From an uncultured delta proteobacterium (GTDB taxonomy: Bacteria > Desulfobacterota > Deferrimicrobia > Deferrimicrobiales > Deferrimicrobiaceae), in NCBI GenBank assembly GCA_963811025.1, contig CAWEPX010000003.1, positions 115,190 to 179,189 of the forward strand: a stretch of 64,000 bases of DNA, in the 5' to 3' direction. This document shows, piece by piece, positions 7,376 to 56,906 of this stretch. How positions within the stretch are numbered: position 1 is the first letter of the stretch; the number at the start of each line of letters is the position of its first letter. The notes beneath the pieces were generated by a model that saw only the letters and a program-made list of their open reading frames with translations, was not told where the DNA came from and did no database searches. The position numbers and the translations under genes are program-made.

Positions 7376-8121
7376 AAGGGGTGAGCGCGATCCTCATCAC
7401 GCGGAACGAGGAGCGCAACGTGGCCGATTGCCTCGCCTCCCTGGTCTTTGCGGACGAAATCATCGTCGTCGATTCGGGGAGCACGGACGGGACGCAGGAG
7501 ATCTGCCGGAGGGACCCGCGCGTGCGGTGGCACACCGAGGAGTGGAAAGGGTTCGGCCCCCAGAAAAACAGCGCCCTCGAGAAGGCGGCGGGACCCTGGA
7601 TCTTCAGCATCGACGCCGACGAACGCGTGTCGGACGAACTGGCCCGGGAAGTCACCGGGCTCGATCTGCCTTCTCTTTCCGTCGACGGTTTTCGCATTCC
7701 GAGGAAGAGCTATTTCGGGGACACCTGGGTGCGGCACGGGGGATGGTATCCGGACTATGTGATCCGTCTATGGCGCAAGGACAGGGGGAGATTCAACGAC
7801 CGGACGGTGCACGAATCCGTTCGCCTCCCCGGCCCCGTGGGGACGCTTCGGGGGGACCTCGTTCACTTCACCTACCGGGACACAGCGGACTTCCTGGAGC
7901 GGATGAGCCGATACGCGGCTCTCGGCGCGGAGGAACTGCGGAGGGAAGGGGTCCGCGGGACGCTCACCGACCTCTGGCTCCGTCCGCCGTTCACATTCGT
8001 TAAAATGTACGTTCTCAAGCGGGGGTTCCTGGACGGCGCGCTGGGTTTTCGCCTCGCGTTGCTCTACGCCCGGTACACCTACGCCAAATACGCGAAACTG
8101 AGGGCGCTTCATGGGGGGTAG
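7372..8121 (+). CDS. family 2 glycosyltransferase (LPS core, WaaE/KdtX-like)
   Basis: VSAILITRNEERNVADCLASL...DADE GT2 signature. Probable GTG start at 7372 overlapping the upstream stop (GTGA). Confidence 0.75.
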   Translation: MKGVSAILITRNEERNVADCLASLVFADEIIVVDSGSTDGTQEICRRDPRVRWHTEEWKGFGPQKNSALEKAAGPWIFSIDADERVSDELAREVTGLDLPSLSVDGFRIPRKSYFGDTWVRHGGWYPDYVIRLWRKDRGRFNDRTVHESVRLPGPVGTLRGDLVHFTYRDTADFLERMSRYAALGAEELRREGVRGTLTDLWLRPPFTFVKMYVLKRGFLDGALGFRLALLYARYTYAKYAKLRALHGG

Positions 8122-9240
8122 TCTCCGGGGGCGGGATGTCCGATCGATCGTGGTGTTCAAGCAGCGCCACATCGGGGACGTCCTTCTGTCCACGCCGGTC
8201 TTTCGCGCCCTGCGGGTATCGTTTCCGGGCGCGAGCACGGCGGCGGTGGTGAACGAAGGGACGGAGGCGATGCTGTCCGGGAATCCGGACATCGACCGGA
8301 TCGTGGTTTTCCGCCGATCCCGGAGGGACGCGGGAGGGATGGTACGCGGGAAGGAGGAACTGTCCTTCCTTCGGGCGATCCGTGCCTGCCGCCCCGATCT
8401 GGCCGTCCAGCTTACGGAAGGGGACCGGGGGGCGATCCTGTCCTTCCTGTCAGGCGCACGATTTCGTCTGGGAGTGGCTCCCGCGCAAGCCGGGGGATGT
8501 TCGGCAAGGAGCGTCTGTTTACCCATCTGTGCCCGCCGCCGGACCGGTATCGGCACGCGGTGCTCCGGGACCTGGAGATTCTGGCGGAAGCGGGGATCCC
8601 CCCGGCCGATCCCTCCCTGCGGTTTTTCTTCTCCCCCGGGGACCGGGAAAGTCTCGAGCGGAAACTGCACCGGGCGGGAGTTTCCGGGGGTATGCCGTAC
8701 GCGATCATCCATCCTACCTCCCGCTGGAAGTTCAAATGCTGGACGGACGAGGGGATGGCCGGGATCATTGCCCATCTGTCCCGGAAAGGGATCGTCCCGG
8801 TGGTGACTTCGGGGCCCGATCCTGCCGAGGTCGCCCAGGCGGACCGTATCGCAGCCCTATCGGGGGCTGATTGCGCCTCGCTCGCCGGCTTCCTGACTCT
8901 CAAGGAGCTGGGGGCGGCGATCGCATCGGCCCGTCTCTTCGTCGGAGTGGACTCCGCGCCGATGCACCTCGCGGCGGCGGTGGGGACACCGGCGGTCGCC
9001 CTCTTCGGTCCGACGGGGGCCTACAACTGGGCCCCGTGGGAGGGGATCGACTGGGGATACACGGCGGACAGGCCGGCGGGGACGCGGCAGGTGGGACGCC
9101 ACATCGTCGTGCAGAAGGAAGGGGATCTCCTGCGGCGGGGGAAGGACGAAGGCAGGCGCAACCCCGGCATGGAGGAGATCACGTTGGCGGAGGTGGCGGA
9201 GGCGGTCGACCGCGTTCTTCTCACGGGGGCGGGGCGGTAG
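8111..9240 (+). pseudogene. GT9 heptosyltransferase (WaaQ-like) interrupted by one frameshift near the G5 run at 8492-8496
   Basis: The N-terminal GT9 half (8111 frame, ...IVVFKQRHIGDVLLSTPVF...) and C-terminal half (8497 frame, ...VGVDSAPMHLAAAVGTPAVALFGPT) lie in different frames. They join at ccgggggatg. Confidence 0.65.
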
Positions 9241-9241
9241 C

Positions 9242-54669: not shown

Positions 54670-55650
54670 ATGGCGACAAAAGTACAGACCCAGGAAATGG
54701 AAATTATCAAGAACATGCGGCAGATCCCGCAGGAAGAGCTGTATGTCCCGGGTCACCGGACATGCGCGGGCTGCGGCCCGGCCCTCTGCTACAAGCTGGT
54801 GGCGAAGGCGGCGGGCAAAGAATCGATCTTCCTCGGACCGACCGGCTGCATGTACGTGGCCAACACCAGCTACCTGTGCACCCCGTTCGCGATGCCCTGG
54901 ACGCATACGCAGATCACGAACGGCGGGGCGGTCGCTTCGGGCATCGAGGCGGCCTACCAGGTCCTGATCCGCAAGGGGAAGTACAAGGGGAAGCTCCCCA
55001 ACATCGTCGTCATGGCCGGTGACGGCGGGGCAATCGATATCGGCCTCCAGGCCATGTCGGCCATGATGTACCGGGGGCACGACGCCCTCTTCGTCATGTA
55101 CGACAACGAGTCGTATGCCAACACGGGGATCCAGACCTCCCCGATGACCCCCTACGGCGGCAAGACCACCTTTACGCCTCCGGGGAAGGCCGTGCCCGAA
55201 GGGAAGAAGCTGTTTCCCAAGGATGCGCCGCAGCTGGTGATCGGCGGACATCCGGCCGTCCACTATGTCGCGACGGCATCGGTGGGCTATCCGGTCGATC
55301 TCATCAACAAGGTCCGGAAAGGGCTCAATTACAAGGGCCCGTCTTTCGTACACATCCACAGCCCCTGCCCGAAAGGATGGATCTTCGACGCCAAGGACAC
55401 GATCAAGGTCGCGAAGCAGGCCGTCGAGTGCGGTATGTGGACGAACTACGAATGGGAGAACGGGGAATACACCTATCAGCACATTCCCAAGACGTACAAG
55501 CCCGTGAAGGAGTTCATGAAAGGGCAGGAACGCTTCAGCCACCTCACCGAGGAGCACATCGCCAAGATGCAGGCCTTCATCACGGCGAAGATCAAGGCTC
55601 CCGGCAAGCCGATCGAAATTCCGGTTCTCGGCCCGAGAGAAGAGGGTTGA
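54670..55650 (+). CDS. porB: 2-oxoacid:ferredoxin oxidoreductase beta subunit (TPP-binding)
   Basis: [11 protein letters not shown] motif and GDGG; 326 aa. Confidence 0.85.
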
Positions 55651-55925
55651 TGAATCGGGCATAAACGTGTATCGTTTTTCCCGCTTGCGAAACATGTGAA
55701 CGGAAGCAAGTGGGTTTGAATGAAAGCGAGGGAAACGTCGTTTCCTGTTGAAGGTCCCTGGGTACCGGCAGCGCTCCCGAGAAATGTCCCCCGGAGAGCG
55801 TTGCCGGACCTGAGGGGAATCCTGGCAACCACATAGGAGGAGGGAGGTGGGGAAAAGAGGGGTTGGAAGCTGCTAGAGGTGGCTGTAGGGGGCACATGGT
55901 CTGCAATCTTCCTAATGGAGGTGTG

Positions 55926-56906
55926 ATGACTATGCGTGTTCTAAGATTCCGGTTCGCCGTTCCGTTACTGCTTTCGGTCGCGTTAATCTTCTGCTTCGTG
56001 GACATGGCAGCGGCCGCATGGCCGGACAAACCTGTTGAATTCACGATCTCCGCAGGTGTGGGGGGCGGGGCGGACAAATACGCCCGGTTCCTGGTCGGCC
56101 TCAACGTAAAGAACCACTACATTTCCCAGCCGATTATTCCCGTCAACAAGCCGGGCGGGGCCGGGGCCGTGGCTATGCAGTCGGTGTTGAGCCAGAAGGG
56201 CAACGGGTACCAGATGCTCATCACCCTGAACAGCTTCATCACCACCCCCCTGTTCCAGAATCTGCCCTTCACGTACCGTGACTTTACCCCCATCGCACTC
56301 TTGGCCCTGGACAACTTCCCCCTCTGGGTCAAAAAGGACGCCCCGTGGAAAACGGCGATGGACTTCATAAATGACGCCAAGAAACGGACCATCATCGTCG
56401 GAGGGACGGGATCCAAGCAGGAAGATGAGATCGTCTTCCGTGCCATCCAGAAGATCATGGAAACCAAACCGTTCAAATATGTTCCCTTCAAGGGCGGCGG
56501 CGCCGTGGCCAAGGCACTGGTGGGCGGGCATGTCGAAGCCACCGTGAACCAGGTCAGCGAGGCGGGCCCCTTCTTCCCGGATTATTTGCGTCCCCTTTGT
56601 GTCTTCCAGGAAAAGCGGCTGGATATTCCGGGCTACGAGGATGTCCCCACCGGCAAGGAAGCGGGGATCGATTTCAACTACAACATGATGCGGGCGATCT
56701 TCGCTCCTCCGGCCATCTCCAAGGAGGCCCAGGACGGACTGGTGGGGCTGTTCAAGAAGATCTCCGATGGACAAGGACTGGGTAGCGTTCGCCAAGAAAA
56801 CCGGTCTGCAGAGGGATTTCATCACCGGCGACGCACTGATGAATTTCTGCGCGCAGTACGAGAAAAAGCACATCGAGATCATGAAGGCGCAAGGCTGGAT
56901 CAAGTA
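55926..56906 (+). CDS. tctC: tripartite tricarboxylate transporter substrate-binding protein TctC (frameshift near 56775)
   Basis: Bug/TctC family (signal peptide; GGGADKYARFL...). The conserved C-terminus ...KDWVAFAKKTGLQRDFITGDALMNFCAQYEKKHIEIMKAQGWIK is in the alternate frame. Confidence 0.7.

Follow-up and report, generated by a model that had tools for sequence, protein, structure and literature searches.

The frameshifts in the window (the whole stretch of DNA analysed here, 64,000 nucleotides) are very probably consensus errors of the metagenome assembly of a Candidatus Deferrimicrobiaceae-like genome and not mutations of the organism, because the same genes are intact in every near-identical independent assembly. 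Base-level comparison with near-identical contigs identifies 23 indel events in 13 genes, spanning positions 8489–56768. Repair of the 23 events gives 13 full-length open reading frames (ORFs) with no internal stops and 96.5–100% amino acid identity. The first-pass annotation of this DNA had also preferred an artefact over real pseudogenisation or programmed frameshifting. This preference is upheld by the intact relatives, the ORF-restoring repair, the unrelaxed selection and the different private frameshifts of a sister assembly. The result is a data-quality flag, not biology, and it says nothing new on the biology of the organism. About 1 in 5 of the ~65 genes in the window would be misannotated as pseudogenes or split genes, including those for PEPCK, POR-alpha and GGT, so that steps of gluconeogenesis and pyruvate oxidation would be wrongly missing from metabolic reconstructions based on this genome. 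Since the indels are not bound to homopolymers, most of them would escape homopolymer-aware correction; short-read polishing or frameshift correction guided by a reference would be the way to mend them.

Comparison with independent assemblies

The references are syntenic contigs of 94–99.5% nucleotide identity from JGI, ENA and Logan data, with 1–9 loci per site. They are 0.5–5% divergent from the window, not identical to it. Comparison with closely related genomes had been suggested as a check, and all 13 genes are intact in every near-identical contig that spans them. No indel of the window is shared with another assembly at any of the 23 sites (1–9 spanning loci per site), and every spanning locus concurs on the size of the window's offset at all 23. 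At least 15 frame breaks had been listed in the first-pass annotation; all 15 are present, displaced by at most ~55 nt. Eight further events lie at 11767, 11786, 12623, 12737, 13994, 14987, 30266 and 34148. The base-level comparison of the 64-kb window found no coding frameshift outside 8489–56768 and none in the 14.5 kb from 15761 to 30265; this gap makes the errors very unevenly spread. Seven intergenic indels between 22651 and 59317 are also private to the window and are like the coding ones in kind. They are located at 22651 (+G, G4→G5), 34455 (−1), 37576 (−1), 53017 (+A), 59196 (+2), 59236 (−C, C7→C6) and 59317 (+A).

One reference is the sister assembly ENA ERZ25039549, whose contig_23273 (L175) represents nearly the same strain. 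It is 98.5–99.2% identical to the window and carries the same strain-variable glycosyltransferase island (10326–17147, forward strand), where other strains have different genes. The sister contig shows private frameshifts of its own in FUR, a hypothetical gene, CDC48/GntR, POR-beta, TctC and TctA. Its private indels are at 37425, 37537, 37898, 38109, 51504, 54929, 56890 and 58405, positions at which neither the window nor the JGI contigs are broken. For seven sites in the island (11651 and 12623–15171) this contig, itself error-prone, is the one reference, and the direction of repair at these sites is backed by ORF restoration and by Pfam continuity. The island reference was obtained via an exact-protein look-up; a metagenome scan with the island epimerase gave a best match of 72%. 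A look-up with Usp gave a 2.2-kb Logan contig of 98.8% identity, which ends 49 nt into pckG and covers no frameshift site. Species-representative genomes were also tried in a PPDK-based scan. The relatives found there are Thermodesulfovibrionia MAGs with ≤74% amino acid identity and no synteny past PPDK, and they are unusable at base level.

Frame breaks in individual genes

The GT9 heptosyltransferase gene (8111–9240, forward strand; 375 aa when intact) carries two extra nucleotides at 8487–8490, and 6 of 6 spanning loci concur. The break itself had been correctly recognized at 8492–8496, but the GGGGG run to which it was assigned has equal length in all references. The window sequence here seems to combine the L175/L092 haplotype with the L089 haplotype. 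After repair the protein has 363/376 identical residues, without stops. A GT4 glycosyltransferase (9242–10350, forward strand; 368 aa) has +C at 9345 and +G at 9407, matching the breaks noted earlier at ~9345 and ~9410. The homopolymer call at 9345, a change of CC→CCC, is acceptable. Six loci concur, and the repaired protein matches at 366/369 positions. Another GT4 glycosyltransferase (11278–12458, forward strand; 392 aa) shows four events, +A at 11651, −T at 11767, +C at 11786 and +G at 11984. The first and last of these correspond to the breaks previously given as ~11680 and ~12000, while 11767 (−1) and 11786 (+1) form a compensating pair. L175 is the sole reference at 11651, and the repaired protein matches at 388/393 positions. 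With intact orthologues as tblastn queries, GT9_375, GT4_364/368 and GT4_393 are each divided between frames.

All seven events of the following four genes are deletions on the forward strand. A methyltransferase with a Pfam Methyltransf_24 domain (12516–13343; 276 aa) lacks TT at 12623 (T4→T2) and G at 12737. Its ORF stays open because the net change is −3, and ~38 codons are out of frame. A short protein with a GT4 N-terminal domain (13406–14004; 199 aa) lacks G at 13994, 11 nt upstream of the stop, which gives read-through in another frame. A glycosyltransferase (14001–15015; 338 aa) lacks C at 14908 (formerly ~14915) and G at 14987. L175 is the only reference for these three genes, and the repaired proteins match at 274/277, 199/200 and 335/339 positions, respectively. 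A GT4 glycosyltransferase (15008–16169; 387 aa) lacks G at 15171 (GG→G) and C at 15760 (CC→C), the breaks placed earlier at ~15190 and ~15780. The former had been described as CCC versus CCCC; the altered bases are actually the GG adjoining that CCC run. Both sites are backed by L175, and Logan contig L176 also has the C at 15760. Pfam, run on stop-to-stop pieces of the frame translations, places Glycos_transf_1 profile positions 2–64 in frame 1 and 65–170 in frame 3 of this gene (15016–16166). Despite the two deletions, the repaired protein is identical at 388/388 positions.

Outside the glycosyltransferase region, a TPR protein (29616–30273, forward strand; 218 aa) has +T at 30266 (TT→TTT) in its last codons, and L174 and L177 concur. 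The gene of a YtxH-domain protein (34126–34419, forward strand; 97 aa) has −A at 34148 and +A at 34268 (~34290 in the earlier list). This leaves ~40 codons out of frame with one stop, and the repaired protein matches at 98/98 positions. The gamma-glutamyltranspeptidase gene ggt (44502–46293, reverse strand; 595–596 aa) has +1 at 44922 (~44960 before), where the references show more than one haplotype. Six loci concur there, and repair gives 580/597 identical residues.

Breaks had been reported in central-metabolism genes, and both pckG (PEPCK) and the POR-alpha gene do carry indels. The gene for GTP-dependent PEP carboxykinase, pckG (46339–48133, reverse strand; 597 aa), has −1 at 46694, +1 at 47835 and +1 at 47981, which break its reading frame into four frame segments. 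The event at 46694, listed earlier as ~46640, is C5→C4 on the forward strand. The event at 47835 is T4→T5 on the forward strand, that is A4→A5 on the coding strand. The earlier reading of AAAAA for AAAA at 47836 was thus right, and this is the only fully right one among the resolved sites. The event at 47981 (~47990 before) is a hybrid of two haplotypes. Nine independent loci concur on pckG, its dN/dS is 0.12 and the repaired protein matches at 589/598 positions. Once its four frame pieces are joined, PEPCK finds full-length 597-aa homologues with 94–98% identity in JGI, ENA, NCBI and Logan data. The 2-oxoacid:ferredoxin oxidoreductase alpha subunit gene porA (53404–54598, forward strand; 397 aa) had been assigned an extra A near 53842. 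The extra base is actually a T at 53844 (ACAC^CATC), outside any homopolymer; six loci concur, and repair gives 392/398 identical residues. In the gene of the TctC tricarboxylate-binding protein (55926–56907, forward strand; 326 aa), the +1 event at 56768 (~56775 before) falls in a tri-allelic codon, which is GAG, GTG or GAT in the references versus GATG in the window. Five loci concur, and the repaired protein matches at 317/327 positions.

Selection and recent gene loss

Genuine and very recent pseudogenisation in this strain, such as decay of an LPS/O-antigen island under phage pressure together with scattered losses, would be too young to show in the close relatives. We consider this very unlikely. 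The breaks had been described as scattered across the window. This is only partly true: 14 of the 23 events are bunched in 8489–15760 (7.3 kb), all within the glycosyltransferase cluster, which is a single functional unit. The density there is 1.82/kb versus 0.18/kb elsewhere, about ten-fold higher, and none of 20,000 simulations was this clustered. Glycosyltransferase clusters are commonly inactivated in nature, and the concentration in such a unit speaks for gene loss. So does the fact that no reference matches the window at 100%, and that pN/pS is ~0.85 across four island genes (MT_276, GT4N_199, GT_338 and GT4_387), a value that comes from 13 changes only and is uninformative.

The substitution pattern argues against gene loss. 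The dN/dS of the broken genes (0.12–0.30) indicates purifying selection just as in intact neighbours (0.05–0.37), and the pooled pN/pS is 0.26. The broken genes contain no nonsense substitutions, and no in-frame stops are present after repair. Several genes with 2–4 indels are almost free of substitutions, as in GT4_387 and the YtxH gene. The four island genes together show 7 indels versus 13 substitutions, and the 4 kb that holds them (12001–16000) has 18 mismatches in total. This indel:substitution ratio is implausible for real evolution. Besides the cluster, PEPCK, POR-alpha, GGT and TctC are also struck; other genes are broken in like manner in the sister assembly, and the indels coincide with strain-polymorphic sites and resemble haplotype hybrids. 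The window is similar to decaying genomes that accumulate pseudogenes in that many genes are frameshifted, some of them repeatedly. It is unlike them in its lack of nonsense mutations, its dN/dS at the level of intact genes and its far too high indel:substitution ratio, and also in having near-identical relatives that are intact and a sister assembly that is broken in different genes.

Position of the indels and origin of the errors

The window had been read as carrying uncorrected sequencing indels. The error part of that reading stands, but the homopolymer-length mechanism attached to it (ion-semiconductor or older nanopore) does not, as there is no homopolymer enrichment. The resolved indels had been placed in short homopolymers; only 3 of the 23 events are in runs ≥3, which is chance level. 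Deletions in such runs amount to 2/10 versus 20.3% expected, and insertions that lengthen them to 1/13 versus 6.5% expected. Miscalls of homopolymer length, the classical error of 454, Ion Torrent and older nanopore chemistry, would fit the three coding events in runs ≥4, at 12623 (T4→T2), 46694 (C5→C4) and 47835 (T4→T5), and two intergenic events in runs, at 22651 and 59236. They are nevertheless highly improbable as the general cause, with run frequencies at chance, 13 of 23 events at sites with just one base or without a run, and no coding indel at any of the 95 runs ≥6 bases in the window.

The indels are concentrated at positions where strains differ. Window-private indels lie ≤3 nt from a reference-versus-reference polymorphism in 8 of 12 cases versus a 24% background (P=0.002). 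For indels private to contig_23273 the figures are 7 of 9 versus 22% (P=0.0006). Several indels in both sequences look like hybrids of two haplotypes, and the identity of the window to one JGI contig shifts from 94.5% to 99.5% along that contig. The strain-specific island (10326–17147) holds 11 of the 23 coding events, including seven consecutive deletions at 12623–15760. The concentration at polymorphic sites and in the island points to a mixed-strain consensus with locally low depth. The best fit is an unpolished mixed-strain consensus that probably derives from long reads and was thinly covered in the island. We infer the long-read origin, the low island depth and the exact consensus mechanism from these sequence patterns.

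Two error modes would be superimposed in such a consensus. In shared regions, reads from co-occurring strains of 95–99% identity would be merged into a single consensus. At places where compensating indels or neighbouring substitutions set the haplotypes apart, the consensus would keep bases of both, and +1 'hybrid' insertions would predominate, as at 8489, 9407, 11786, 44922, 47981 and 56768. The island (~10.3–17.1 kb) would recruit reads only from the strain that carries it. Its depth would then be low, so that single-base deletions would survive polishing, and this second mode fits the seven consecutive deletions.

Frameshifts from uncorrected indels are well documented in long-read MAGs, nanopore bins below ~40x depth require short-read polishing, and gene-fragmenting indels are the target of the IDEEL test, proovframe and Kastor (PMC9262707; bioRxiv 10.1101/2021.08.23.457338; PMC12007338). 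The window is similar to unpolished long-read assemblies in several features. Its single-base indels divide conserved genes, and reference-guided repair gives full-length proteins. The indels are private and absent from the JGI and Logan contigs, which we take to be short-read assemblies. At 212,845 bp the source contig is long, and the 1.39-Mb contig of the sister assembly has a Flye-style name. However, homopolymers are usually stressed for such assemblies, whereas here they are not enriched and strain polymorphism and the island stand in their place. Effects of microdiversity on MAG quality, through collapsed or chimeric strain consensus, are discussed in PMC9262707. The window shares with such consensus the switches of identity along one JGI contig and the enrichment of indels at polymorphic sites, and many of its indels join the left state of one haplotype to the right state of another. 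It differs in that the literature mostly describes fragmentation and SNP mosaics, and frameshift insertions at multi-nucleotide polymorphisms less often.

There is a slight chance that some of the frameshifts are real, arising by recent phage-driven inactivation of the island or by very short-tract recombination between strains with compensating-indel alleles. If so, short-tract recombination would be a natural mechanism that generates frameshifts at polymorphic sites. Programmed ribosomal frameshifting, transcriptional slippage or simple-sequence-repeat phase variation has a likelihood close to nil: site 47835 does lie in CTG AAA AAC (coding strand), like a slippery A-rich heptamer, but such heptamers are associated with a −1 shift whereas the +1 insertion would call for a shift of +1, the proteins of relatives run in a single frame at 23 of 23 sites so that no frameshift site is conserved, the 23 sites have no common motif, and the glycosyltransferase sites have no repeat tract ≥7 bases, the longest run being T4 (12623) and most being 0–2.

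Mismatches within ±10 nt of the indels are 2.7-fold enriched, a weaker signal than that of the polymorphism-site test. The ACG start at 39808, in a 249-aa methyltransferase gene, was considered as a further error and rejected. Contig_23273 calls a 244-aa product like that from the alternative start in the window, and the ACG is probably real variation.

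Frame breaks and their base-level positions

PEPCK spreads over four frame segments in the three-frame translation of the minus strand (46250-48300). With intact orthologues as tblastn queries, GT9_375 splits into frames 2 then 1, GT4_364 into frames 2, 3 and 1, and GT4_393 into frames 1, 2 and 3 (genes are labelled by family and intact length in residues). In the GT4 gene at 15016-16166, positions 2-64 of the Pfam Glycos_transf_1 profile match in frame 1 and positions 65-170 in frame 3. These results show that the sequence really does contain the frame breaks.

PEPCK joined from its four pieces was used as a query and found full-length 597-aa homologues with identity up to 98%. 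The corresponding loci L081-L088, from six JGI metagenomes and two Logan assemblies, are collinear with 36289-58131 at 96.5% nucleotide identity, and every gene is intact in them over this range. Exact or near-exact protein matches led to the remaining references. They are JGI loci L182 (1-10314, 90-94% identity) and L089 (5623-10326 and 17147-26020, ~95%), JGI contigs Ga0307417_10000075 (L092 and L174, 17147-36546, 99.5%; L092, 6531-12433, 94.5%) and Ga0307417_10000093 (L178, 50429-64000, 98.6%), and the 1.39-Mb contig_23273 of ENA ERZ25039549 (L175, L177 and L179; 6181-27124, 28765-49684 and 50436-63135; 98.5-99.2%).

Alignment to these references gives 23 window-private indel events in the coding sequence of 13 genes: GT9_375 at 8489 (+2); GT4_368 at 9345 (+1) and 9407 (+1); GT4_392 at 11651 (+1), 11767 (-1), 11786 (+1) and 11984 (+1); MT_276 at 12623 (-2) and 12737 (-1); GT4N_199 at 13994 (-1); GT_338 at 14908 (-1) and 14987 (-1); GT4_387 at 15171 (-1) and 15760 (-1); TPR_218 at 30266 (+1); YtxH_97 at 34148 (-1) and 34268 (+1); GGT at 44922 (+1); PEPCK at 46694 (-1), 47835 (+1) and 47981 (+1); POR-alpha at 53844 (+1); and TctC at 56768 (+1). 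At all 23 sites the spanning loci (1-9 per site) concur on the size of the offset, and none of them shares the window's indel. Seven more private indels are intergenic, and the genes of 1-8400 and those past 56768 showed no frameshift. All 15 frame breaks listed in the first-pass annotation were found, each within ~55 nt of its position; its positions are largely right, and its count misses eight events.

Coding state of the broken genes and the sister assembly

Once the 23 events are reversed, all 13 ORFs are full length and free of internal stops, with 96.5-100% amino acid identity, including 388/388 for GT4_387 and 98/98 for YtxH. The dN/dS of the broken genes is 0.12-0.30, within the 0.05-0.37 of intact neighbors (references 3.5-5% diverged), and pooled pN/pS is 0.26 against the closest reference. 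MT_276, GT4N_199, GT_338 and GT4_387 together carry 7 indels versus 13 substitutions, and the 4 kb containing them (12001-16000) hold 18 mismatches in total. Indels make up about one tenth of point mutations in bacterial mutation spectra, so this ratio exceeds even neutral decay. Genes hit several times yet with unchanged protein sequence are not like real pseudogenes.

Nearly the same strain has been assembled a second time in contig_23273, whose name is in the style of the Flye assembler. This contig is intact at 23/23 window indel sites and has private indels of its own: in FUR (37425 and 37537, FUR lost), a hypothetical gene (37898 and 38109), CDC48 (51504, fused to GntR, 976 aa), POR-beta (54929, split into 117 + 228 aa), TctC (56890, product 335 aa) and TctA (58405, split). 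Its frameshift regions are L177 11547-12597 and L179 1-1844, 4236-5217, 5500-6507 and 7430-8754. At each private indel of contig_23273 the window is intact, as are the JGI contigs. We regard this comparison as settling: the lesions are a property of each assembly, not of the lineage. Contig_23273 needs equal caution because of its own frameshifts.

Real, recent pseudogenisation in this strain is accordingly very improbable, as repair restores the ORFs, dN/dS is that of intact genes, indels are too many per substitution, and the nearly identical strain is intact at these sites and broken in other genes. Programmed frameshifting or phase variation is excluded, with single-frame orthologues and sites that have neither a common motif nor repeat tracts. 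The frame breaks serve as a warning about data quality and are of little biological interest.

Sequence context, clustering and probable origin of the errors

The artefact interpretation of the first-pass annotation holds on the evidence of repair, selection and the sister assembly, but the short homopolymers in which it placed the resolved indels, and the error mechanism it drew from them, do not, with only 3/23 events in reference runs of at least 3 nt. Deletions within such runs number 2/10 versus 20.3% expected, and insertions lengthening them 1/13 versus 6.5%. The GGGGG at 8492-96, taken as an indel site, has equal length in all references; the proposed CCC versus CCCC at 15190 is a GG to G change at 15171, adjoining the CCC run; and the extra A assigned to a run at 53842 is an extra T at 53844, in ACAC^CATC.

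The indels follow strain polymorphism. Of 12 testable indels private to the window, 8 are within 3 nt of a site where the references differ among themselves, versus 24% background (P=0.002); for those private to contig_23273, mostly +1 insertions at strain-polymorphic sites, the figure is 7/9 versus 22% (P=0.0006). At 56768 the window has GATG where references have GAG, GTG or GAT, a visible hybrid. At 47981 and 8489 it joins one haplotype's left indel state to another's right state, and contig_23273 has like patterns at 54929, 56890 and 37898. Such sites and hybrids also argue against pseudogenisation.

The events are clustered, with 14/23 within 8489-15760 (1.82/kb versus 0.18/kb elsewhere), reached by 0/20,000 simulations. 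Seven deletions follow in succession over 12623-15760, in a strain-specific island where mismatches are few. This glycosyltransferase island, shared among the references by contig_23273 only, probably suffered from low read depth, and in shared regions the consensus was probably drawn from mixed strains. Nanopore bins of low coverage (<40x) require polishing, and R10.4 chemistry largely eliminates homopolymer errors (PMC9262707; see also bioRxiv 10.1101/2021.08.23.457338, PMC12007338). The non-homopolymer residue would fit R10.4 reads, if that platform is assumed.

The island (10326-17147) contains glycosyltransferase, methyltransferase and epimerase genes at a lower GC of 56-62%, and different gene sets replace it between the same flanks in three other strains (L089, L092 and L182). 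Identity to the single contig Ga0307417_10000075 goes from 94.5% over 6531-12433 to 99.5% over 17147-36546. Strain backgrounds form a mosaic along the window, through either real recombination at the island or a chimeric consensus.

Other features of the window

GC is 57-71% across the window, and spurious ORFs are abundant because of it. Large ORFs match Pfam families for PPDK, a CDC48-type AAA ATPase, family-B DNA polymerase, TctA, DegT, GT9 and GT4 glycosyltransferases and an outer-membrane MetA-type protein. Identity of the window's proteins to NCBI 'MAG: Candidatus Deferrimicrobiaceae bacterium' proteins is 94-100%. At 39808 the window has ACG where the 249-aa methyltransferase of L081 starts with ATG; this is probably natural start-site variation rather than error, because in contig_23273 the counterpart is called from a start further downstream and has 244 aa. 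TerC-family paralogues stand in tandem at 60433-61179 and 61351-62142, with ~81% nucleotide identity over 707 nt. Three consecutive minus-strand tRNA genes (3476-3566, 3664-3753 and 3820-3904), flanked by DUF2155 and DegT aminotransferase genes, are each 85-91 nt long, a length that suggests long variable arms. A ~45-nt hairpin element, GGGGACA-N31/32-TGTCCCC, occurs in two intergenic copies (3423-3468 and 21257-21301), which are absent from the matching places in other strains (L182 and L089) and look like small palindromic REP/MITE-like insertions.
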